Shown piece after piece: positions 2,397 to 26,673 of a stretch of DNA of 64,000 nt; the stretch's first letter is position 1, and each line of letters opens with the position of its first letter. Both the position numbers and the translations under genes were made by a program. The stretch comes from Candidatus Zhuqueibacterota bacterium (GTDB lineage: Bacteria > Zhuqueibacterota > Zhuqueibacteria > Zhuqueibacterales > Geothermadaptataceae): the NCBI GenBank assembly GCA_030950365.1, contig JAUZRQ010000001.1, positions 86,591-150,590 of the forward strand, written 5' to 3'. The notes beneath the pieces are model-generated. The model was not told the origin of the DNA, did not search any database, and saw nothing but the letters and a program-made list of their open reading frames with translations.

Positions 2397-2832
2397 AAAA
2401 CCCAATATGAACCAAATCGAGGCTTCGCAAAAGGCATATAAATCGGTCGCTGCTGAAAAAATTGCCGAGCAGAATCGAAAAGCGCAAAACCCCTCTGAAG
2501 TAAAACGGGATATTGTAGAGATTTCTTCTGCAGCAAAAGAGCTACTGGCTAGGGCTACCCAAAATGGTCGGTTGGCCCAGGATTCACCGGATCTGATAAT
2601 TTCCAAAACCCAGATTGCCGTTTCGCTGCAAAAAGCTGGTCTTGTAGATGATACTGAAAAAGCCGATAAGATTTCCGAAAAAGTGTTTCAAAGGCTAAGT
2701 GAGGAAAGTGGTTTGAAAAACGATAAGATTGAGCGTGTAAAAGAGCGCCTCGAGAGTGGATTTTATGATTCACCTCAAGTGATCGAAAAAATCGCTGAAG
2801 GCCTCATGAAAGATATGAAATTCAACCAATGA
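2386..2832 (+). CDS. flgM: Anti-sigma-28 factor FlgM
   Basis: 148 aa. It carries DIVEISSAAKELL and the C-terminal DKIERVKERLESGFYDSPQVIEKIAEGLMKD. These match the FlgM signature (V-x-L-S...; kV..ik.aI..G.Y.vd...iA.kl). Confidence 0.75.
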   Translation: MRIEKPNMNQIEASQKAYKSVAAEKIAEQNRKAQNPSEVKRDIVEISSAAKELLARATQNGRLAQDSPDLIISKTQIAVSLQKAGLVDDTEKADKISEKVFQRLSEESGLKNDKIERVKERLESGFYDSPQVIEKIAEGLMKDMKFNQ

Positions 2833-2914
2833 TACACGATTCCTATTTGGGGGCATCCCTGTTTTTTGTGACCGCTAATTGTTTATGCCAGGGAGGGCGT
2901 AAGCATTGTGGCGA

Positions 2915-3955
2915 TTATTCTGCAAATTTTTCCAATATCTTTTGCACCAGTTTTTGATTGAACAAAGGCTCGGCATGAAATAGGCTAACCACGTCACATT
3001 GTTGCTCCACGAAATAATTTAACGCCTCTTCAAGCCGCTTTAAGTCTTCAGGAGTTGCCTTGGCGGGCAAATCAATTTCCGGTATAACTCTCACCTTTTG
3101 AAGCTGCTTAAACTCACTCATCATGCTCTCGATCCATTGCAGAGAAATGTCAAATTGAAACAAATGGAATTGTGGCGAAATGACTTCCACCAATCCTGAC
3201 CATTGTTTCAGGTATTGCCCCGTACTCCGGCGTAACTTCTCAAGAACTTGTGGCGGCGTTATTGGCGGAATTTGTACAAGCATGTTGCCATTTTTGCCAG
3301 TCTTTTCAAACTCTTCAGCGATCAAAATTGGAATTAAAGTAACATTTTCCGCCCGGAACTGAAACCAGTCGTCGATGGCATCAAGAGGATTGGGTTTTCC
3401 TGAATAATCCAAAAACTGATAGCGACAAAAGTCACAATAGCAATAGTTGGGCAGGGCTGTGCCATCTTTATCAAAGGCCTGAATTTCAGGCAAGTAGGGA
3501 TAGTGCAAAAATTCCAGGCTGACTAATAATGGATCAAAGGTTTTGATGGCATCGCGGATAAGCTGTATCCGATAATTTCGGTAGGGTTCGTTAGATGGGC
3601 AAATGGGCTTATACCAGGAAGAAGGAAACTCGGCTTTGCCTCTTAAATTGACCGGCCGATATTGTGGAATGGTGTCAAATGTATCCGGATCATGAAACAC
3701 CGGAAATTCCGGAATGAAAGCTATGTTGTGATCATGACATTGATGCTGAAATTTGGTCAAATCCCATTCCCCATTCTCGGAACCGCCTTCAACCGGGAAA
3801 AATAGCCGACTTCCTTGAAAAACAGGTACAATAATTGAACGGATGCGAAGTTGTTGGAGATGGTTGAGAATAAGGTTGAAATTGCCAATGAAATGTTTTC
3901 CCCAGATTGTGTTGGGATAAAGTTTCAAGGTAAACAGCATAAAATTATCCTGCAA
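2915..3955 (-). CDS. Hypothetical protein (346 aa), possibly a TIM-barrel/glycoside-hydrolase-like fold with a CYCDFC cysteine cluster
   Basis: Long uninterrupted ORF with coding-like composition. I cannot place it in a family with confidence. It contains NYCYCDFCRYQF and several aromatic-rich segments. Confidence 0.6.
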   Translation of the reverse strand: MQDNFMLFTLKLYPNTIWGKHFIGNFNLILNHLQQLRIRSIIVPVFQGSRLFFPVEGGSENGEWDLTKFQHQCHDHNIAFIPEFPVFHDPDTFDTIPQYRPVNLRGKAEFPSSWYKPICPSNEPYRNYRIQLIRDAIKTFDPLLVSLEFLHYPYLPEIQAFDKDGTALPNYCYCDFCRYQFLDYSGKPNPLDAIDDWFQFRAENVTLIPILIAEEFEKTGKNGNMLVQIPPITPPQVLEKLRRSTGQYLKQWSGLVEVISPQFHLFQFDISLQWIESMMSEFKQLQKVRVIPEIDLPAKATPEDLKRLEEALNYFVEQQCDVVSLFHAEPLFNQKLVQKILEKFAE

Positions 3956-4025: not shown

Positions 4026-4112
4026 TGCCGAGGGCCGGACTCGAACCGGCACGGTCATAAAATGACCGAGGGATTTTAAGTCCCTTGCGTCTGCCAATTT
4101 CGCCACCCCGGC
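4026..4112 (-). tRNA. tRNA-Leu (anticodon TAA)
   Basis: The reverse complement folds as a cloverleaf. It has acceptor GCCGGGG/CCTCGGC, anticodon loop CTTAAAA, a long variable arm and T-arm GGTTCGAGTCC. No CCA is encoded. Confidence 0.9.
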
Positions 4113-4121
4113 AAGTATGAG

Positions 4122-4197
<76 letters not shown>

Positions 4198-4209
4198 TTG
4201 AGAAAAGAG

Positions 4210-4281
4210 AGCGGGAGACGGGATTTGAACCCGCGACCCCCACCTTGGCAAGGTGGTGTTCTACCACTGAACTACTCCCGC
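4210..4281 (-). tRNA. tRNA-Gly (anticodon GCC)
   Basis: The reverse complement GCGGGAGTAGTTCAGTGGTAGAAC...CTTGCCAAG...GGTTCAAATCC...CTCCCGC forms a cloverleaf with anticodon GCC. Confidence 0.9.
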
Positions 4282-6630: not shown

Positions 6631-6703
6631 TGGAGCTGATCGGATTCGAACCGACGACCTCATGACTGCCAGTCATGCGCTCTCCCAACTGAGCTACAGC
6701 CCC
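6631..6703 (-). tRNA. tRNA-Ala (anticodon GGC)
   Basis: The reverse complement GGGGCTGTAGCTCAGTTGGGAGAGC...CTGGCAG...GGTTCGAATCC...CAGCTCCA carries the G3:U70 alanine identity pair. Confidence 0.9.
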
Positions 6704-12323: not shown

Positions 12324-12397
12324 GGGCGGTTAGCTCAGGTGGTTAGAGTGCTTGCTTGACATGCAAGAGGTCACTGGTTCGAGTCCAGTACCGCCCA
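12324..12397 (+). tRNA. tRNA-Val (anticodon GAC)
   Basis: GGGCGGTTAGCTCAGGTGGTTAGAG...anticodon loop TTGACAT...GGTTCGAGTCC...ACCGCCCA. Confidence 0.9.
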
Positions 12398-16538: not shown

Positions 16539-18920
16539 GTGAAAATTACCTATAGCTGGCTGCAGGAACTGACGAACACCACGCTTTCGGTGGAGGAGGT
16601 CCAGGATCGCCTGACCATGCTGGGCCTCGAGGTGGAAGCCGTGTATTCTACGGTACCCGAGGTAGAGGGCGTGGTTATTGGCGAAGTGTTAGAGGTGCAG
16701 CCAATTGAAAATTCCGCGCATCTTAAGTCCTGCAAAGTCAATATCGGCCACGAGCAGGTGCAGGTGGTGTGTGGTGCGCCGAATGTGGCCGCCGGGCAAA
16801 AAGTGCCTTTGGCCATGCCAGGAGCGCTTCTCCCCAATGGCATGAAAATCTCCCGTCGCAAAATTCGGGGCGTTTTATCTCACGGCATGATTTGTTCCGA
16901 AGCCGAACTGCATCTGTCAGACGATGCCGAAGGCATCATGGTTCTGGATGATCAGGCCCCTGTAGGAGAGCCATTCAAAGCCTATCTTGGCAAGCAAGAT
17001 TACGTGTTCGAACTGGGCATTACACCGAACCGGCCGGACTGCCTCGGGGCCATTGGCATTGCACGCGAAATTTGCGTGAGCGAGGGGCGGCCGTTCGAAT
17101 CGCCGCTGAAAACCGTTTCATTGCCGCTCGCCGGCAATGAAACGGTTAGCGTCGATATTCTCGCGTCGGATGCCTGCCCGCGGTACACCGCGCGGTTGAT
17201 TCGCCATGTCAAGATCGGACCTTCGCCGCGCTGGTTGGTGGATCGATTGCGTGCAGTTGGACTGCGCAGCATCAACAATGTTGTGGATGTAACCAACTAT
17301 GTCATGATGGAAACCGGGCAGCCGCTGCATGCGTTCGATTATGATCTGCTGAAGGGCGGGCGCATCGTGGTGCGCACGGCAAAGGACGGCGAAAAATTCG
17401 TCACTCTGGACGGCAAAGAGCACACTCTGAAAGAAGGCAATTTGCTGATTTGCGACGCCGAGCGGGCCGTTGCTCTGGCAGGCATTATGGGCGGCGAGAA
17501 TTCCGAGGTGTCCGACAATACCCGGCACATCCTGCTGGAAAGTGCCTATTTTGCGCCGTTTTCCATTCGCAAAACCACGCGCCAGCTCGGTATTTCCACG
17601 GATTCTTCGCGCCGATTCGAACGCGGTGTGGATCCAAATGGGGCGGATCTGGCCTCCAACCGTGCAACGCAGCTCATCCTTGAAGTGGCAGGGGGGGAGC
17701 TGGCTTCGGATTTGGTGGATGCCTATCCCGGAACCATCGTCCCGGTTGAAATAGAATTTCGTCCACAGCGTAGCAAAAAGGTTCTGGGACTGGAAATTCC
17801 GGAGAACGACATGCAGCGCATCCTGACCCATCTGGGATGCGAAGTGGATGCCAGTCATTCTACCTGGCGGATCAAGGCACCTACGTTCCGGCCAGATCTT
17901 GAGCGAGAAATCGATTTGATCGAGGAAGTGGCGCGGATTTATGGCTACAATGACATCCCTAACAAGACACTGGATACAATTCACCTCGATATGCCGTCGA
18001 ACTGCTTCGATGCTTTCGTTGATCGGGTGCGGCACAAAGCGGCTTCGCTATCGCTGTCGGAGATTGTTACCCTGAGCATGGTGTCGAGAAAGCAGGCGGC
18101 TGGGTTTGTGGATTCCGAAGACGCCCTGCTCAGCCTGGTCAATCCGCTGAGCGAAGATATGGCCGTGATGCGGCCTACGCTGTTTACTTCGATGCTATCC
18201 TCTGTGGTTTACAATCTCAACCGCAAGCAAATTGATTTGCGCTTCTTTGAAGTCGGCAATGTGTTCCGCTACGATCCTGACAGCAAAAAGGTGATTGAGC
18301 GTCGGGCATTTAGCGCCGTGGGCACTGGCCGCAAATTCATGCCTAGCTGGGACGTCAAAGCTGAGACCATCAATTTCTTTGATATGAAAGGGATCGTAAC
18401 GGAATTTTTGCATCAATTGCATTTGCATAATGTGAAGTTCGCTGTAAGTCAATATAAATTTTTTGAATACAGCGCAGATTTACTTGTGGATGAGCAAAAA
18501 ATTGGCTATATTGGAAAATTCAAAAAATCGATTCTTGCGCTGTACGACATCAAGCGAGACGTCTTTGGCTTTGAGCTGTATTTAGAAGATCTGTATCCGC
18601 TCGCGCAGACAGCATTGAAATTTCAGCCGATTTCGGCATTTCCGCCGGTAGAGCGCGATCTGGCGTTGGTAGTGGATAAAGACAGGCCTGCAGCCGAGCT
18701 GGAAGCCGTAATCCGCGAAACGGCCGGACCGCTGTTGCGTGAATTGACCCTGTTTGATCTCTATTCAGGGCCGCAGATACCGGAAGATAAAAAGAGTCTG
18801 GCCTTTTCGCTGGTGTTCCAATCGGATGAACGAACATTGACGGATGAAGAGATCAACACGATTTTGGATGACGTGCTCAAGGCCGTCAATGTGAAACTTG
18901 GCGCAACTTTGAGACAGTAA
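16539..18920 (+). CDS. pheT: Phenylalanine--tRNA ligase beta subunit
   Basis: 793 aa with a GTG start. It has an N-terminal tRNA-binding domain, B3/4 and B5 regions and a FDX-ACB C-terminus. Confidence 0.95.
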   Translation: MKITYSWLQELTNTTLSVEEVQDRLTMLGLEVEAVYSTVPEVEGVVIGEVLEVQPIENSAHLKSCKVNIGHEQVQVVCGAPNVAAGQKVPLAMPGALLPNGMKISRRKIRGVLSHGMICSEAELHLSDDAEGIMVLDDQAPVGEPFKAYLGKQDYVFELGITPNRPDCLGAIGIAREICVSEGRPFESPLKTVSLPLAGNETVSVDILASDACPRYTARLIRHVKIGPSPRWLVDRLRAVGLRSINNVVDVTNYVMMETGQPLHAFDYDLLKGGRIVVRTAKDGEKFVTLDGKEHTLKEGNLLICDAERAVALAGIMGGENSEVSDNTRHILLESAYFAPFSIRKTTRQLGISTDSSRRFERGVDPNGADLASNRATQLILEVAGGELASDLVDAYPGTIVPVEIEFRPQRSKKVLGLEIPENDMQRILTHLGCEVDASHSTWRIKAPTFRPDLEREIDLIEEVARIYGYNDIPNKTLDTIHLDMPSNCFDAFVDRVRHKAASLSLSEIVTLSMVSRKQAAGFVDSEDALLSLVNPLSEDMAVMRPTLFTSMLSSVVYNLNRKQIDLRFFEVGNVFRYDPDSKKVIERRAFSAVGTGRKFMPSWDVKAETINFFDMKGIVTEFLHQLHLHNVKFAVSQYKFFEYSADLLVDEQKIGYIGKFKKSILALYDIKRDVFGFELYLEDLYPLAQTALKFQPISAFPPVERDLALVVDKDRPAAELEAVIRETAGPLLRELTLFDLYSGPQIPEDKKSLAFSLVFQSDERTLTDEEINTILDDVLKAVNVKLGATLRQ

Positions 18921-18946
18921 TTTGGCGTTTTACCGAGACAGAGCCA

Positions 18947-19228
18947 ATGGATAGTCCATCCTATTCAATTTTAGAAACCAAGATTTTGCAGGCGGTCAAC
19001 TTAATTCATGAGCTACGACGCGAAAACGAAAAACTCAAACACGAATTGGAACTGTTAAGGCTTGAATTAAACGAGAAAAAACGTGAAATTTCAAATTTAA
19101 AGCAAGCTTTGGATCAACAGCCTTCACCCGATTTGACCTTGCAGCAGTATCAGGAGAGAGAAGCCCAAATTCGCAGCAAAATTGAGAAGATGCTGGCGAA
19201 ATTGGAAGCGTTGGATATACCGATTTGA
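18947..19228 (+). CDS. Coiled-coil protein, ZapB-like (putative cell-division factor)
   Basis: 93 aa of continuous heptad coiled coil (ELRRENEKLKHELELLRLELNEKKREISNLK). It lies immediately upstream of zapA. Confidence 0.45.
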   Translation: MDSPSYSILETKILQAVNLIHELRRENEKLKHELELLRLELNEKKREISNLKQALDQQPSPDLTLQQYQEREAQIRSKIEKMLAKLEALDIPI

Positions 19229-19287
19229 ATCTGCCGTTTGTTTCATGCTTGGACGATTGACAGCTAAATTGATGAAAACCATACCCA

Positions 19288-19605
19288 ATGAATCAACAAG
19301 GCAACATTATTAAAGTCACTATATATGGCACCGAGTATCCGATTCGAGGAGAAACGGATGCCGAATACATTAAAAAAGTTGCCGCGTATGTTGATCAGAA
19401 AATGTACGAAGTCGAGCGAAGTTCTTCTGCAAAATCCACGGTGAAGGTGGCCATTTTAGCAGCTCTGAACATTGCAGATGAATTATTTCGTGAGAGGGAA
19501 GAAAAACAGAAGTTGGTCAAGCAGTTTGAAGAAAAAATATTTAAGCTGTCAAATCTGTTGAATGTACAAAACCAAGGCGAGGCTGAAACAACGTTAACTG
19601 AATAA
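19288..19605 (+). CDS. zapA: Cell division protein ZapA
   Basis: 105 aa. VTIYGTEYPIRGETDAEYIKKVAAYVDQKM...VKVAILAALNIADELF matches the ZapA fold pattern. Confidence 0.8.
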   Translation: MNQQGNIIKVTIYGTEYPIRGETDAEYIKKVAAYVDQKMYEVERSSSAKSTVKVAILAALNIADELFREREEKQKLVKQFEEKIFKLSNLLNVQNQGEAETTLTE

Positions 19606-19630
19606 AATTCAAGGCAGTTCACCAGTAAAG

Positions 19631-19747
19631 AATCCCTGATTGCTGCATTCTTTTCCCTCGCCGGATTAGTCCAAGCATGAACACAAAAACCTTTATGTTG
19701 TTCTATGGTCTTGGACGCCGGCGAAACGGAGGCAGCAGTCAGGGATT
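19631..19747 (+). ncRNA. Unclassified structured RNA element: rod-like nested hairpin followed by a U-run, in the zapA-rny spacer
   Basis: Nested helices: 19631-19646/19732-19747 (16 bp with one G.U), 19658-19664/19718-19724 (7 bp), 19669-19675/19710-19716 (7 bp) and 19676-19683/19699-19707 (8 bp with one bulge), plus apical pairs. TTTCTTTT follows, then the rny RBS GGAGG (19756-19760). Confidence 0.5.
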
Positions 19748-19764
19748 TTTCTTTTGGAGGATCA

Positions 19765-21333
19765 ATGTCAGTAGTTTGGATTATGGTTATTCTGGTAGTA
19801 GCTGCGGCCGCATTCTATCTTGGTTGGATGCTGCGCTCTCGCATGGGCCAGGATAAAATAGCCAGGGCTGAAAAATATGCCGAACAGGTGCTTCAGGAGG
19901 CGCAGAAAGAGGCGGAAAATCTAAAAAAGGAAAAAATACTCGAAGCCAATGAGTATTTTTTTCAGCAGCGGCAGCGTCTTGAACGTGAAGAGCGGCAGCG
20001 TCAGGAGCATATGAAACGCCTGGAGCGGCAGCTCAGTATTAAAGAAAGCAACCTGGATCGCAAAGTTGATATATTAAATAAAAAAGAAAAAGAGCTGCAG
20101 CAACAAGAGCAAAATTTTCGGTCCCGCGAAAAGCAAATTAAGCTTAAAGAAGAACAATTGGAACAGCTCCTTGAAGAGCAAAACCGGAAACTGGAACAAA
20201 TCTCCGGCCTGAGTAGCGAAGAAGCCAAGAGGATTCAGCTCGAAAACATCCTGGAAGCGGCGCGTCAGGAAGCGGAAACTCATATCCGCGAAATCGAGGA
20301 TAAAGCGCGCGCCACCGCTGATCAAAGGGCCAAGGAAATTATCGTGCAGGCCATTCAGCGCACCGGGGTGAGCCATATTGTGGAAACCACGGTGAGCATT
20401 ATCAAGCTGCCCAATGATGACATGAAGGGCCGCATTATCGGCCGCGAAGGCCGAAACATCCGCACCTTTGAGGCGGAAACCGGTATTGAGGTACTGATCG
20501 ACGACACGCCGGAAGTGGTAATGCTGAGCGGCTTCAATCCGATCCGGCGTGAGGTGGCCCGGCTGGCGCTGGAAAAGCTAATCCTCGATGGTCGTATTCA
20601 TCCAGGGCGGATTGAAGAGGTGGTGGCCAAAACCCGTGAGGAAATTGATGAAAAAATTTTTGAATATGGAGAACAGGCCATCCTTGAACTGGGGCTGCAT
20701 GGAATCCATCATGAGCTGGTGAAACTGCTCGGAAAACTCAAATTTTACACCAATGTCGGCCAGAATGTGCTGCAGCATTCCATTGAAGTCGCCTTACTGG
20801 CTGGACAAATGGCCGCCGAGCTGGAGCTGGATACCAATCACGCAAGACGGGCTGGTTTGCTTCACGAAGTCGGTATGGCGGTGGAAAATTACACCGATTG
20901 TTCGACCGCTGAGTTATCGGCCGAACTGGTGCGAAAATATGGCGAGCCGGAAGTCGTGCAAAATGCCATTCTCACCGCCAACAATCCGGATTGCGTGAAA
21001 GAAATTCTGACGCCCATTTCCATCATTGTGGCCATTGCCAACGAGATCAGCATTCGGCGTCCCGGTGCGCAAAAGGAAATGTTGGAGAGCTATTTCAAAC
21101 GCCTCAATCAGATGGAAGAAATCGCCAATTCGTTCATGGGCGTCAAGCGGTCCTATGCCCTGCAGGCCGGTCGCGAAATTCGCGTCATGGTCGAGTATAG
21201 CAAAGTGGATGATCCCGGCGCAGAGCATCTGGCCGCCGAAATCGCCCAAAAAATTCGCGAAAACATTGCCTTTCCAGGCCAGATCAAGGTCACGGTGATC
21301 CGCGAATACCGCACCTCGGACGTGGCGAAGTAA
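19765..21333 (+). CDS. rny: Ribonuclease Y
   Basis: I take the start at ATG 19765, preceded by GGAGG. It has an N-terminal TM helix (VVWIMVILVVAAAAFYLGW), a coiled coil, a KH domain (GRIIGREGRNIR) and an HD domain. The listed 19705 start would lie inside the structured spacer. Confidence 0.93.
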   Translation: MSVVWIMVILVVAAAAFYLGWMLRSRMGQDKIARAEKYAEQVLQEAQKEAENLKKEKILEANEYFFQQRQRLEREERQRQEHMKRLERQLSIKESNLDRKVDILNKKEKELQQQEQNFRSREKQIKLKEEQLEQLLEEQNRKLEQISGLSSEEAKRIQLENILEAARQEAETHIREIEDKARATADQRAKEIIVQAIQRTGVSHIVETTVSIIKLPNDDMKGRIIGREGRNIRTFEAETGIEVLIDDTPEVVMLSGFNPIRREVARLALEKLILDGRIHPGRIEEVVAKTREEIDEKIFEYGEQAILELGLHGIHHELVKLLGKLKFYTNVGQNVLQHSIEVALLAGQMAAELELDTNHARRAGLLHEVGMAVENYTDCSTAELSAELVRKYGEPEVVQNAILTANNPDCVKEILTPISIIVAIANEISIRRPGAQKEMLESYFKRLNQMEEIANSFMGVKRSYALQAGREIRVMVEYSKVDDPGAEHLAAEIAQKIRENIAFPGQIKVTVIREYRTSDVAK

Positions 21334-21416: not shown

Positions 21417-22214
21417 ATGTCCAGTAATCATTTATTGACTGTTTTGTTTGTTGCCGATGTCGTCGGACAGCCCGGCTGCGAAATTCTTTCGCGGCTGCTG
21501 CCTACGCTGAAAAAGCAATACCGGGCGGATTTTGTGATCGCTAACGGCGAGAATGCCAACAACAACGGCAAAGGCATCACCGATAAAATCGCCCGGCGGT
21601 TTTTCGACCTCGGCGTTGACGTCATTACCGGCGGCAATCATACGTGGGAAAACCGGAAAATAAATGAGCTATTCAAAGAAGAACCGCGGGTATTGCGGCC
21701 GGCGAATTATCCAGACGAAAATCCCGGCAAGGGCGTGTATATTGCGCGACTGCTGGACGATACCCGCATTGCGGTGATCAATTTGCAGGGCCGCACGTTC
21801 ATGTATCCGATTCGCTGTCCCTTTCGCATGGCCGATGCTTTGATCAAACAAGTCAAGCAGGAAACGCATTTGATCATCGTCGATTTTCATGCAGAAGCCA
21901 CAGCAGAAAAAATTGCTCTCGGCTGGTATCTGGACGGCAAGGCCAGCGCCATTATTGGCACGCATACGCACGTGCAAACCGCTGATGAGCGTATTTTGCC
22001 AAAGGGAACGGCCTATATTACCGATGCCGGCATGACCGGAGCGCATGATTCGGTTATCGGGATGAAAATACCAAATGCGCTGCATCGTTTTTTGAATCAA
22101 ACACCGTCCCGTTTCGATGTAGCCAACGAAAACTTACGTTTTTCAGGTGTATTGATCACCATAGAACGAGATACGGGCAAAGCTCAGAGCATTCAACGCA
22201 TTTCATTACCCTGA
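21417..22214 (+). CDS. ymdB: YmdB-family metallophosphoesterase (2',3'-cyclic-nucleotide 2'-phosphodiesterase)
   Basis: 265 aa. It has LFVADVVGQPG, ANGENA, GGNHTWE, VDFHAEATAEK and GTHTHVQTADE. The rny-ymdB pairing is the same as in B. subtilis. Confidence 0.9.
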   Translation: MSSNHLLTVLFVADVVGQPGCEILSRLLPTLKKQYRADFVIANGENANNNGKGITDKIARRFFDLGVDVITGGNHTWENRKINELFKEEPRVLRPANYPDENPGKGVYIARLLDDTRIAVINLQGRTFMYPIRCPFRMADALIKQVKQETHLIIVDFHAEATAEKIALGWYLDGKASAIIGTHTHVQTADERILPKGTAYITDAGMTGAHDSVIGMKIPNALHRFLNQTPSRFDVANENLRFSGVLITIERDTGKAQSIQRISLP

Positions 22215-22218
22215 GACC

Positions 22219-23109
22219 ATGTCAGCAGAGATCATTGACGGCAAAAAAATTGCCGAGCAAATTTATTCGGAACTTTCGGAAGATATTGAAGCGCTAAAGG
22301 AAAAGGATATTATTCCGAAACTTACGGTTATACTTGTGGGCAATGATCAGGCGTCGGCTGTGTATGTTCGTATGAAAGGCAATGCCTGCAAGCGGGTCGG
22401 TATTGTTTCGGAAACATTGACCTTTGATGCCGATATTTCCGAAGAAGAACTGCTTGCCATCATCGATCGGCTGAATCAGGATGCGAGCTGCCATGGCATT
22501 CTGGTGCAGATGCCGTTGCCGGATCACATTGATGAGAACAAAGTTATCGAAAGAATTTGGCCTGAAAAGGATGTGGACGGATTTCATCCGGTGAATAAGG
22601 GACGGCTGCAGGCCGGGTTGCCGTGCTTTGTGCCATGTACGCCGGCTGGAGTGCAAGAAATACTGGTCCGCAGCGGCTATTCGCCGGAAGGCAAACACGT
22701 TGTGGTCATTGGGCGCAGCCAGATCGTGGGCATGCCTCTGGCCATTTTGCTGGCGAAGAAGCAAAAAGGCGCCAATGCCACGGTAACAATTTGCCATTCT
22801 CGTACACAAAATGTTGATTTTTTCACGAAAAATGCAGATATTATAGTAGCTGCGATGGGACGGCCCCAAACCATCACAGCGGAGATGTTGAATCCAGACG
22901 CTGTGGTGATCGATGTGGGAGTGAATAGGGTGGAGGATCCACAAAGCGAAAAAGGCTACCGTCTAGTGGGCGATGTGGATTTCGATGCGGCAGTTGAGCA
23001 TGTTAAAGCCATCACACCAGTGCCGGGCGGCGTAGGGCCGTTGACCATCGCCATGTTGATGAAAAATACGGTGTTGGCCGCTGAGAAATCCCTATTTCGG
23101 CGGCAATGA
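22219..23109 (+). CDS. folD: Bifunctional methylenetetrahydrofolate dehydrogenase/methenyltetrahydrofolate cyclohydrolase
   Basis: 296 aa. It has ILVG.DQASAVYVRMK, ILVQMPLP, KDVDGFHP, VIGRSQIVGMP and PVPGGVGPLT. Confidence 0.95.
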   Translation: MSAEIIDGKKIAEQIYSELSEDIEALKEKDIIPKLTVILVGNDQASAVYVRMKGNACKRVGIVSETLTFDADISEEELLAIIDRLNQDASCHGILVQMPLPDHIDENKVIERIWPEKDVDGFHPVNKGRLQAGLPCFVPCTPAGVQEILVRSGYSPEGKHVVVIGRSQIVGMPLAILLAKKQKGANATVTICHSRTQNVDFFTKNADIIVAAMGRPQTITAEMLNPDAVVIDVGVNRVEDPQSEKGYRLVGDVDFDAAVEHVKAITPVPGGVGPLTIAMLMKNTVLAAEKSLFRRQ

Positions 23110-23114
23110 GAAAT

Positions 23115-23188
<74 letters not shown>

Positions 23189-25058: not shown

Positions 25059-25133
25059 TCGGGGCGCCCGGATTTGAACCGGGGACCTCATGCTCCCGAA
25101 GCATGCGCGCTAACCGGACTGCGCTACGCCCCG
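25059..25133 (-). tRNA. tRNA-Pro (anticodon CGG)
   Basis: The reverse complement CGGGGCGTAGCGCAGTCCGGTTAGCGC...loop TTCGGGA...GGTTCAAATCC...GCCCCG forms a cloverleaf. Confidence 0.9.

Positions 25134-26596: not shown

Positions 26597-26673
<77 letters not shown>

Follow-up and report, generated by a model that had tools for sequence, protein, structure and literature searches.

Between zapA and rny, the gene for RNase Y, a stretch of 64,000 nucleotides from a Candidatus Zhuqueibacterota bacterium (hereafter the window) can fold into one long hairpin of 117-123 nt with four helices, as RNA of the + strand. This raises the question of whether the element serves the gene upstream of it, the gene downstream of it or neither. 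In the initial annotation it was read as a leader or attenuator that controls RNase Y, as a small stable RNA of the 6S type released from the zapA transcript, or as a foldback repeat of the MITE/REP type.

The zapA-rny spacer and its hairpin

Upstream of the hairpin, a zapB-like coiled-coil ORF of 93 aa (18947-19228, + strand) is followed by zapA (19288-19605, + strand, 105 aa; Pfam ZapA, 81 bits), the product of which is 100% identical to the NCBI-named ZapA of candidate division KSB1 bacterium. The ZapB Pfam score of the zapB-like ORF (29.4 bits) is slightly below the cut-off; its orthologues are annotated as PF06005. Downstream, rny (19765-21333, + strand, 522 aa) encodes an RNase_Y_N domain (181 bits) together with KH and HD domains, followed by ymdB (21417-22214; Pfam YmdB, 363 bits) and folD (22219-23109; FolD domains in Pfam). 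Just 22 nt separate the zapA stop codon from the start of the hairpin, which therefore has no promoter of its own. On the other side, the end of the U-run is only 9 nt away from the rny ATG (19765-19767, + strand), and since 5 of these are taken by the Shine-Dalgarno (SD) sequence GGAGG (19756-19760), there is no room for a promoter between the U-run and rny, in agreement with what had been annotated. The GGAGG is kept in nearly all orthologous zapA-rny spacers. Scanning 18800-20200 for consensus promoters and terminators gave no + strand promoter and no terminator, a result of little weight, as promoter rules may differ in KSB1. The best explanation for the hairpin is that it forms the border between a (pheT-)zapB-zapA transcription unit and rny.

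The minimum free energy structure of the whole spacer (19606-19764) was a nested rod at -66.8 kcal/mol, which reproduced the fold drawn initially; all coordinates given for P1, P2, P3, P4, the U-run, GGAGG and ATG were correct upon re-reading of the sequence. Dinucleotide shuffles of the spacer gave -39.4 +/- 3.8 kcal/mol (z = -7.2), and none out of 200 folded as well. When the rod was folded alone (19628-19755), the + strand reached -60.6 kcal/mol and the - strand -53.9 kcal/mol, a difference of 6.7 kcal/mol in favour of the + strand.

The closing stem P1 has a core of 16 bp (19631-19646 with 19732-19747) with a single G.U pair (T19640.G19738). A-U and G.U pairing lengthens this core to 19 bp (5′ arm 19628-19646, 3′ arm 19732-19750) by drawing in the leading U's of the U-run (TTTTTCTTTT / UUUUUCUUUU, 19746-19755), which has 9 U's within 10 nt directly after the GC-rich stem base, the first 5 of them pairing with a complementary A-rich run upstream. 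The internal loop above P1, described before as 11 x 7 nt, is present but not open throughout: UUCC (19653-19656) on its 5′ side (19647-19657) pairs with GGAG (19728-19731), and these 4 bp, here called P1b, partly close what is the largest loop of the rod (6-11 x 3-7 nt). P2 is formed by UCGCCGG (19658-19664) and a 3′ arm at 19718-19724, the latter being followed up to position 19731 by the 3′ side of the loop with the second strand of P1b. A conserved bulge of 4 nt (AUUA, 19665-19668) leads from P2 to P3, the junction of which measures 4 x 0-1 nt. The head consists of P3 (19669-19675 with 19710-19716) and P4 (19676-19683 with 19699-19707, with one bulge). Its 5′ strand carries an invariant motif, box A′ (GUCCAAGCAUGAA, 19669-19681, + strand), that has two possible pairing partners, the local 3′ arm and a box A further upstream. 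The local arm (box A″, 19699-19716) repeats box A imperfectly (UUCUAUGGUCUUGGAC compared to UUCAUGCUUGGAC). The apex (19684-19698) is variable and not conserved even among relatives with 91-93% ZapA identity.

When the whole window was searched with the 4227 families of Rfam at gathering score, only tRNAs and chance matches to microRNA and lncRNA families were found, and on the element (19400-19950) no family, including 6S (RF00013) and the known leaders, matched beyond chance at E <= 10. By eye the head motif resembles SRP RNA domain IV, RNase P P4 and 16S 785-805; these resemblances found no support in Rfam and were dropped. A coding role of the motif was discarded as well, as both an ATG at 19677 and a minus-strand 'MLGL.RR' show non-synonymous, frame-breaking variation across lineages.

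Conservation of the rod and predicted pairing of its head with the zapA 5′ UTR

The orthologous zapA-rny spacers of KSB1 relatives retain the rod. In an alignment of 13 lineages (ZapA identity 63-93%), 91% of the P1 cells were paired compared to 38-57% in slid registers, and 9 of the 16 pairs were altered on both sides, a score that was reached by none of 500 shuffles. P1 is uninterrupted over 19 bp here and has 15-22 bp in the relatives, where P1b recurs as a covarying helix of 4-8 bp (UA/GU/AU/GC and CG/UA/AU). The GCCGG/CCGG of P2 is invariant in the 8 sequences in which that part aligns. Relative to L094 and L095, one-sided changes in P1 lead to G.U pairs, and such pairs in the stem point to selection at the RNA level, on the + strand. 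The comparison of these spacers shows the rod to be real and conserved in KSB1 relatives, with a closing stem (P1, P1b) that is upheld by compensatory and G.U changes. The sister lineages L002, L003, L036 and L067 have only hairpins of 30-80 nt, or nothing, in this slot; in L067, rny follows a spacer of 14 nt without a rod, and in L006 it has a different upstream context.

Besides the window itself, box A′ is conserved in L094, L095, L106, L108, L111 and L122, and variants are present in L105, L113 and L115. Elsewhere in the 64 kb, the head motif has only one match with at most one mismatch, namely box A (UUCAUGCUUGGAC, 19242-19254, + strand); a regulon search for this motif through the window gave nothing else. 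Box A is located in the zapB-zapA spacer, 13 nt after the end of the zapB-like stop codon and 34-46 nt before the ATG of zapA. All of its 13 nt are complementary to box A′ (19669-19681), which is about 420 nt away. The A:A′ duplex was calculated at -22.5 to -23.2 kcal/mol, compared to -13.7 kcal/mol for the local head hairpin, and with A′ occupied, P1, P1b and P2 remain intact at -46.7 kcal/mol. A nested partition function gives P(A:A′) = 0; the duplex is a pseudoknot with P1/P2 and as such lies outside nested models.

Box A is conserved or co-varies in exactly those lineages that have box A′, and is absent where A′ is absent. In L105 a G-C pair is replaced by C-G and a bulge is added, in L115 an A-U pair is replaced by G-C and the helix is shifted to UCGGACAAC/GUUGUCCGA (9 bp), and in L095 the duplex is extended to 15 bp. 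For L094, L095 and L111, none of 200 shuffles matched the observed length of complementarity. Two properties of a UTR interaction were thus found, complementarity of at least 10 bp above chance (13 bp predicted) and its compensatory maintenance (L105, L115 and L095), the latter among only about six independent lineages with both boxes.

Boxes of this kind, with unrelated sequences, were also observed in other loci. In L036/L045, L049 and L061, a box in the 5′ UTR complements the 5′ arm of the downstream hairpin, which in the short-hairpin lineages L036, L049 and L061 is the base of the terminator stem, and in loci that harbour a 6S RNA such boxes complement the 5′ arm of 6S or the 3′ flank of zapA. 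In E. coli zapA-ssrS, the complementarity between 5′ UTR and 6S was not above chance (z = -0.4 to -1.0; RNAduplex gives unrealistic multi-loop duplexes on long stretches and z-scores were used for ranking only), and therefore a bracket of the A/A′ type is not universal. Being complementary to the zapA 5′ UTR, the conserved head motif links the element with the zapA mRNA no less than with rny.

Two bacterial mRNAs offer a comparison. In hbs of B. subtilis, a 14-bp duplex between the 5′ and 3′ UTR modulates cleavage by RNase Y (Braun, Durand and Condon 2017, PMC5737220), and in icaR of S. aureus, 3′UTR-5′UTR pairing covers the start site (reviewed in PMC7821165). The pairing predicted here is likewise a long-range 5′/3′-UTR duplex of 10-15 bp on one short cistron, and the nuclease whose cleavage is modulated in hbs is encoded by the next downstream gene at our locus. 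In contrast to both systems, the 3′ partner belongs to the head of a rod that is large and terminator-like, where it rivals a local helix, which results in a pseudoknot, and unlike in icaR the start site is left uncovered at this distance of box A from the AUG. Moreover, the interactions of hbs and icaR are poorly conserved between species (PMC7821165), whereas A/A′ shows co-variation between lineages, and other phyla have analogues of it. The bracketing of zapA by A/A′ would be among very few evolutionarily conserved bacterial 5′/3′-UTR interactions, and the predicted pairing adjoins the gene of the nuclease known to be antagonised by interactions of this type.

A probable boundary hairpin between zapA and rny

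With moderate confidence, we regard the element as a terminator- or attenuator-like boundary hairpin combined with a 5′/3′-UTR clamp on the zapA mRNA. The rod would have descended from, or replaced, an ancestral ssrS, and would have kept the closing stem and the U-run, which are what the flanking genes need. With about 55 nt gone, among them the central bubble, it probably would no longer trap RNA polymerase. P1 and the U-run would act as an intrinsic terminator or attenuator that ends the zapBA mRNA and protects its 3′ end, and rny would be carried by read-through transcripts only, which would set the ratio of zapA to rny. Boxes A′ and A would form a pseudoknot-like clamp of 13 bp between the 5′ and 3′ UTR, in competition with the local head hairpin, which is weaker. 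If B. subtilis hbs is taken as an analogue, this clamp could bear on the access of endonucleases to the zapA cistron, on its stability or on its translation, and it may also influence the folding of the rod during transcription. Any effect of A:A′ on termination would here be indirect, because the duplex leaves P1 undisrupted.

Like intrinsic terminators, the element has a GC-rich stem base followed by a U-tract (CCCUG/CAGGG, then A and UUUUUCUUUU) where a gene cluster ends and ahead of the next gene, and in 13 of 13 lineages this ending abuts the rny SD. The bona fide 6S rods of relatives end in the same way, so that a long rod with a U-run recurs at this locus. However, intrinsic terminators are compact hairpins with a stem of about 5-15 bp and a loop of 3-8 nt, whereas this stem-loop spans 117-123 nt and four helices, and its interior carries an invariant motif that no terminator needs. 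The dependence of rny, which encodes a major enzyme, on read-through of a hairpin of -60 kcal/mol is awkward. A promoter of rny inside zapA that is unlike the known consensus may be conceived, and the U-run could instead, or also, act as a U-rich translational enhancer for rny.

Alternatively, the rod might primarily be a cis-regulatory 5′ leader of rny that serves as an entry site for processing or decay, so that RNase levels feed back on the rny mRNA, for example by cuts of RNase III in a P1 of 19-23 bp or of RNase Y in the loops. We consider this unlikely. With only 9 nt between U-run and ATG, all rny transcripts contain the rod or start inside it, and the uninterrupted 19 bp of P1 (15-22 bp in relatives) are comparable to the duplex size class of RNase III substrates. 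E. coli RNase E autoregulates through the structured 5′ UTR of rne, and for RNase Y itself there is a precedent in B. subtilis, where it autoregulates via cleavages in its own 5′ UTR (PMC10303841). As in these two leaders, a structured RNA is positioned directly upstream of the gene for a major decay-initiating endoribonuclease, but it has no similarity to them in sequence or structure and is shared with the 3′ end of the upstream gene. Neither rne5 (RF00040) nor rne-II nor any other Rfam leader matched at gathering score or at E <= 10. The leader or attenuator function that had been annotated is plausible, given the position of the stem base and U-run in all 13 lineages; sequestration of the SD is not supported. 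Pairing of GUUCACCAG in the 5′ flank with UUGGAGGAU was rejected as a specific feature, since in 12 lineages (fractions 0.05-0.57) the unpaired probability of the SD was not below that with shuffled flanks. In addition, sister rny genes do without a rod (the 14-nt spacer of L067 and the other upstream context of L006), and the conserved head motif points toward zapA rather than rny.

Relation to 6S RNA and the remaining alternatives

In at least 19 more distant loci, a 6S RNA (RF00013) at gathering score is encoded between zapA and rny. With a local 6S model made of 20 6S RNAs from zapA-rny spacers, the slot of one further locus, L063, reached 160 bits. These 6S RNAs and the KSB1 rod share stem ends (AAAUYCCCUG...CRGGGAUUUUU), the U-run and a short distance to the rny SD, the likeness of the stem ends extending over ~12 nt at each end. 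Moreover, both are rods on the same strand directly downstream of zapA, as is also the case in E. coli (zapA-ssrS-fau), a context that is typical of 6S and lends support without defining the family, and in both the next gene starts within 10-35 nt and must therefore be co-transcribed. On the other hand, the KSB1 rod is about 55-60 nt shorter (123 compared to about 180 nt), which bears out an earlier remark on its size, and it lacks a promoter of its own, a conserved central bubble and the GGGAGC...CACCCACC core. The local 6S model aligned with its stem ends only and scored 10.9 bits, compared to 6.9 bits for a generic terminator-like site, and RF00013, with a family threshold of 46.4 bits, gave no match on 19400-19950 at E <= 10. 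Neither model found 6S in the KSB1-type relatives, and across the rod family no bubble such as that of 6S (about 13-16 nt per strand), which separates the closing from the terminal stem and mimics an open promoter, is conserved unpaired. The 6S-like reading of the initial annotation holds for the slot, but the RNA in it failed in the Rfam and bubble tests and fitted the local model at its stem ends only. From its position and stem ends, the rod is a positional and probably degenerate heir to ssrS, and cannot be demonstrated to be a 6S RNA; the resemblance of the stem ends could also be convergent.

We regard it as distinctly improbable that the rod is a functional, miniaturised 6S RNA, in which case ~125 nt would be released from the zapA transcript, bind the housekeeping RNA polymerase holoenzyme and template pRNA, and KSB1 would have a novel short class of 6S. 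Such an RNA would occupy the exact slot of ssrS with the common closing-stem ends and U-run, and on the 5′ side P2 ends 33-39 nt from the stem base, which is similar to the 42 nt before the central bubble of RF00013. Canonical 6S was not found at gathering score within the 64-kb window, the 6S RNAs of the FCB group are known to be very divergent (6S-Flavo, PMC2864571), and in vitro the 6S cycle still runs to completion with B. subtilis 6S-1 cut to 78 nt (PMC8876501). Against it speak the results with both 6S models and the lack of a conserved large bubble, as the P1/P2 loop is shut by the covarying P1b and the P2/P3 junction is narrow. Judging by the short or empty slots of L002, L003, L036 and L067, the wider clade can do without 6S function at this locus, and the most conserved motif of the rod is accounted for by pairing with the zapA 5′ UTR instead.

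Just as improbable, in our estimate, is a 6S remnant that was exapted as a long-range riboregulator, an attenuator that senses RNase Y and depends on the history of the transcript. Here, the folding of the rod behind the polymerase would depend on whether box A remains free and attached, and this folding would set how much transcription or translation reaches rny. The state of box A could follow ribosomes that stop at zapB or start at zapA, or could alternatively be set by co-transcriptional cleavage by RNase Y. Going by the pairing of their boxes with the terminator stem, L036, L049 and L061 would suit such an attenuator best, with a box like that of a classical antiterminator acting over about 400 nt.

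Coming back to the boundary hairpin, in the widespread order zapA-ssrS-rny the closing stem and U-run of 6S form the junction to the RNase Y gene, which in several phyla couples a global transcription regulator to a global RNA-decay enzyme. In KSB1/Calditrichota-like lineages the slot shrinks stepwise from ~180 to 123, 80, 40 and 0 nt and provides a natural deletion series of a 6S locus, raising the question whether 6S is retained in these phyla and, if so, at which place.

At the DNA level, the inverted repeats (the rod arms and boxes A/A′) might be protein-binding, cruciform or recombination sites that flank zapA, which we consider very improbable. As A and A′ are reverse complements, a protein that binds double-stranded DNA would be offered two copies of one 10-bp site, and their co-variation would be expected in this case too. 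However, the rod tolerates G.U pairs, which are A.C on the other strand, and folds better as the + strand. Complementarity is moreover preserved via shifted nucleotides in L115 and via a bulge in L105, so that pairing is kept and not the identity of a site, and no recombinase or regulator gene was found nearby. Finally, a foldback repeat of the MITE/REP type that landed in the spacer by chance is rejected with near certainty, for although the element has the shape of a long near-perfect foldback and the relative L016/L015 has GC-rich REP-like palindromes on both sides of zapA, it is single-copy in the window (the sole other match being its own opposite arm), has covarying orthologues in lineages whose ZapA identity is 63-93%, and was found by its own covariance model (97 sources, 388 kb) exactly once per locus, always in the zapA-rny slot.

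Structure and conservation of the rod

The sequence from 19200 to 19900 was re-read and every pair listed in the initial annotation was checked. All coordinates held: P1 (19631-19646 with 19732-19747, + strand, 16 bp with one G.U), P2, P3 and P4, the U-run UUUUUCUUUU (19746-19755, +) into which the 3′ arm leads straight, the rny Shine-Dalgarno (SD) sequence GGAGG (19756-19760, +) and the rny ATG (19765, +). P1 was lengthened by three pairs, between the A-rich run and the start of the U-run, to 19628-19646 with 19732-19750. RNAfold returned the same unbranched nested rod for 19606-19764 at -66.8 kcal/mol; dinucleotide shuffles gave -39.4 ± 3.8 (z = -7.2) and 0 of 200 were equally stable. The internal loop described as 11 x 7 nt was found in its place, but it is partly closed by UUCC (19653-19656) pairing with GGAG (19728-19731). 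The assumed flanking genes were also borne out, with ZapA (81 bits) encoded upstream and RNase Y (RNase_Y_N 181 bits, plus KH and HD) downstream; a ZapB-like ORF precedes zapA, and ymdB and folD follow rny. The ZapA of the window matches at 100% a protein that NCBI assigns to a candidate division KSB1 bacterium, and the nearest locus in a genome belongs to a KSB1 MAG whose RNase Y is 93% identical. The window has an in-frame ATG for rny at 19705, and the rod 3′ arm (19705-19764) is open in the rny frame. Because this arm is open, gene callers over-extended rny in the related loci L106 (962-1010) and L113 (1929-1964), where the calls reach 10-22 codons into the hairpin (544 and 532 aa vs 522).

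Related zapA-rny loci (L-numbers) were gathered by RNase Y in genomes, by ZapA in metagenomes and from contigs encoding ZapA homologues. Lineages with 63-93% ZapA identity (L094; L095/L001/L014/L098; L105; L106; L108; L111; L113/L122; L115; L018; L023) carry rods of 99-132 nt that share their ends and are followed by U-run, SD and rny ATG, and L116 has an 85-nt version. When the P1 arms of 13 lineages were aligned without gaps, starting at the invariant AUCCC and GGGAU anchors, the 16 basal pairs were 91% paired, compared to 38-57% when the partner was slid by 1-3 columns. Both sides had changed in 9 of these 16 pairs, and the covariation score was reached by 0 of 500 column shuffles. In a model-based alignment P1b covaries too (UA/GU/AU/GC and CG/UA/AU), and P2 (GCCGG/CCGG) shows no variation. 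Comparison of the window with the 91-93% relatives shows a nearly constant 5′ arm and a 3′ arm that drifts by G.U-compatible substitutions. In stability, the + strand rod exceeds its complement by 6.7 kcal/mol. By this drift and strand advantage, the object under selection is an RNA transcribed from the + strand.

L107 (1797-1907; 72% ZapA identity) departs from the terminator-like design: its hairpin GAUUCCUCUUCGCG...CGCGAUGAGGGAU has neither a U-run nor the zapA 5′-UTR box described below. In L006 (Caldithrix MAG) the spacer is 572 nt long (2428-3001), with neither hairpin nor U-run ahead of rny, and holds an additional small ORF, which may resemble a four-helix-bundle (23S rRNA intervening-sequence) protein.

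Complementarity between the rod head and the zapA 5′ UTR

The most conserved region of the family is not the stem. It lies just after P2, where a 4-nt linker (AUUA/AUCA/GUCA) is followed by GUCCAAGCAU, paired in the window clade and ~40-60% unpaired in L106, L108 and L111. When the window was searched with this head motif, only one further near-match came up, at 19245-19255 on the other strand. Here box A, UUCAUGCUUGGAC (19242-19254), which lies between zapB and zapA and 34-46 nt ahead of the zapA ATG, is a perfect 13-nt complement of box A′, GUCCAAGCAUGAA (19669-19681), ~420 nt downstream. Box A is present in all lineages with box A′ and absent where A′ is lacking (L116, L018, L023, L107, L002, L003). 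The A:A′ helix has 15 bp in L095, 12 bp in L111 and 10 bp in L106 and L108. A G-C pair has become C-G in L105, together with a bulged C, an A-U pair has become G-C in L115, where the helix is shifted to UCGGACAAC/GUUGUCCGA, and L113 has one G.U pair. As judged from these alignments, A:A′ changes between lineages as an RNA helix does. The observed length was reached by 0 of 200 shuffles in L094, L095 and L111.

In the window A:A′ (-22.5 kcal/mol) is more stable than the local head hairpin (-13.7), leaves P1 unbroken and, with A′ blocked, still lets P1+P1b+P2 form (-46.7 kcal/mol). Bound and unbound states are therefore predicted to be energetically close once the loop penalty is added. Nested folding gives A:A′ zero probability because it forms a pseudoknot with P1/P2. 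A canonical TTGACA hexamer, which may or may not be a promoter element, stands 2-6 nt after box A in the window (19257-19262) and likewise in L095, L105, L111 and L113; no acceptable -10 was found 16-18 nt past it in any of these. L113 and L122 also have a second complementarity of 10-11 nt, ACUAAACUAGA with UCUAGUUUAGU, between the zapB 3′ end and the opening 25-35 nt of the zapA-rny spacer, which may be fortuitous or form another long-range helix.

Proposed role of the rod

The element is a conserved + strand RNA rod with a covarying closing stem, an invariant GC base and U-run directly against the rny SD, a position equivalent to that of 6S RNA in other lineages, and co-varying A:A′ complementarity. 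By kind, it is a terminator/attenuator-like boundary hairpin combined with a 5′/3′-UTR interaction, both previously known, and its site has the look of a 6S gene remnant. Our confidence is evenly balanced on the proposal that it acts as terminator/attenuator and as clamp of the zapA 5′ UTR. P1 and the U-run would serve as intrinsic terminator/attenuator and would protect the 3′ end of the (pheT-)zapB-zapA transcript, although the hairpin length is atypical for a terminator. The rny spacer is too short for a promoter of its own, and rny would be expressed via read-through transcripts with the rod as their leader; a promoter inside zapA is possible. The head motif would clamp the zapA 5′ UTR and might tune zapA stability or translation, perhaps also the folding pathway of the rod, by analogy with hbs, where a 14-bp 5′/3′-UTR duplex modulates RNase Y cleavage (PMC5737220), and with the 5′/3′-UTR pairing of icaR (PMC7821165).

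A processing or autoregulatory leader centred on rny itself is a less likely explanation. The 19-bp uninterrupted duplex is compatible with it and the RNase Y gene is autoregulated in B. subtilis (PMC10303841), but specific support was lacking and its sole testable prediction, sequestration of the SD, failed.

The zapA-rny spacer as a 6S RNA slot

The synteny of zapA and rny is widespread, and the 6S model of Rfam (RF00013, threshold 46.4 bits) scored 55-88 bits precisely between the two genes in 18 loci, including an Acidobacteriota MAG (L009). A nineteenth locus, L071, reached 49.9 bits; L070 and L055 scored slightly under the threshold. A covariance model of 20 6S RNAs from zapA-rny spacers (R2) added L063 at 160 bits and, at 22-29 bits, the divergent L029, L026, L022 and L025, and by eye only we judged L004 (Chlorobiaceae MAG) to hold a 6S-like rod. 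The 6S RNAs of this slot start with AAAUUCCCU(A/G)CC and end with GG(U/C)GGGGAAUUUUUUU, ~10 nt ahead of the rny SD, and their junction with rny is the AAAGAAUCCCUG...CAGGGAUUUUUCUUUUGGAGG junction of the window. A U-run ~10 nt before the SD ends the gathering-score 6S RNA in L009, L031, L032, L035, L038, L039, L041, L044, L048, L053, L054, L060, L063, L068, L069, L071, L072, L077, L080 and L082. The zapA-ssrS-rny order implies that 6S RNA would be co-transcribed with RNase Y. A limited literature search found no description of this arrangement. Its occurrence across phyla and the conserved helix bracketing zapA are more general than the hairpin alone, and we rate them above it.

From lineage to lineage, what fills the slot makes up a size series: 6S RNAs (~180-210 nt), KSB1 rods (99-132 nt), hairpins of ~70-85 nt (L036, L049, L061, L116) or ~30-40 nt (L002, L003; Calditrichaeota and KSB1-type MAG labels), and a mere 14-nt spacer (L067). 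RNase Y identity to the window is 57-93% in rod loci, 50-61% in short-hairpin loci and at most 49% in 6S-bearing loci. This is good positional evidence, not proof of homology, that the rod took the place of an ancestral 6S gene. The initial annotation had considered a 6S-like RNA. Slot, stem ends and U-run are as in 6S loci, but with filters off R2 aligned only the ends, AAAGAAUCCCUG[101 nt skipped]CAGGGAUUUUUCUUUU, at 10.9 bits, and a nearby generic A-run/hairpin/U-run site received 6.9 bits.

That the rod works as a mini-6S RNA is quite improbable, even though it occupies the ssrS slot, shares the stem ends and comes from genomes with no known 6S RNA. The rod lacks the open-promoter mimic that defines 6S RNA: between P1 and P2 it is interrupted by a small, variable loop, which relatives shut with a covarying helix, and the P2/P3 junction of the window is 4 x 0-1 nt. 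RNAalifold of eight lineages kept no consensus beyond P1, P1b and P2, and the heads differed in topology. In sister lineages the slot is almost empty. Small size alone cannot exclude 6S function because B. subtilis 6S-1 truncated to 78 nt still cycles in vitro (PMC8876501). The 6S RNAs of the FCB group, including 6S-Flavo, are very divergent (PMC2864571), but the bubble is preserved in such RNAs, in contrast to the rod. By model score and predicted structure, the rod does not pass as a 6S RNA.

Long-range complementarity around zapA was also found in lineages without the KSB1 rod. The zapA 5′ UTR of L036/L045 has 13 nt complementary to a downstream terminator-like hairpin, and they match its 5′ arm more perfectly than its own 3′ arm does; in L049 (7+8 nt) and L061 (9+3 nt) the complementarity falls on the base of the 5′ arm. 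In the 6S-bearing loci L032, L034, L037-L040, L044, L054, L060, L063 and L068, complementarity of 20-30 bp, split over several segments, links the zapA 5′ UTR (-60 to -10) to the 40 nt past the zapA stop, upstream of 6S (z-scores -3 to -5 vs shuffles), with co-varying sequences (CGUCGCCAAG/CUUGGCGACG vs GCCGCCGGAAU/AUUCCGGCGGC). In L090, L083, L057, L072, L080, L053 and L086 a 5′-UTR box, GCAGGGAAUUCACG, complements CGUGAGUUCCCUGC, the 5′ arm of the stem that closes 6S RNA. The box, which resembles the 3′ arm of 6S RNA, could compete with formation of that stem in transcripts from upstream of zapA. No comparable 5′-UTR complementarity was found for E. coli zapA. Since the same pairing logic recurs with unrelated sequences, a bracketing helix around the zapA cistron seems an old trait of the neighbourhood, and its 3′ strand seems to have been absorbed into the head of the KSB1 rod.

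A function at the DNA level is highly improbable, being disfavoured by the G.U pattern and the shifted helix. At gathering scores, Rfam 15 matched only eight tRNAs in the whole window (three clustered on the - strand at 4026-4281; 6631-6703, 12324-12397, 23115-23188, 25059-25133 and 26599-26673), of which the one at 23115 comes immediately after folD, as in L001, L002, L003 and L006. At E <= 10 the rod gave only chance microRNA-precursor matches, with 6S, 6S-Flavo and rne leaders absent, so neither the 6S nor the leader families that the initial annotation pointed to were recovered. By these searches, the rod is outside every described family. The rod 5′ arm matched only its own partner arm in the 64-kb window, and a covariance model of the rod (R1) found a single copy in each locus across 97 sources (388 kb), each time between zapA and rny. 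The foldback MITE/REP repeat suggested earlier was therefore rejected and, given this single-copy synteny, has next to no probability. GC-rich REP-like palindromes (GCAGAGCGCAGAGGGCAUGGCGCAAAG...) do flank zapA on both sides in L016 (2794-2902) and L015, where a near-perfect 25-bp hairpin replaces the rod in the zapA-rny spacer.
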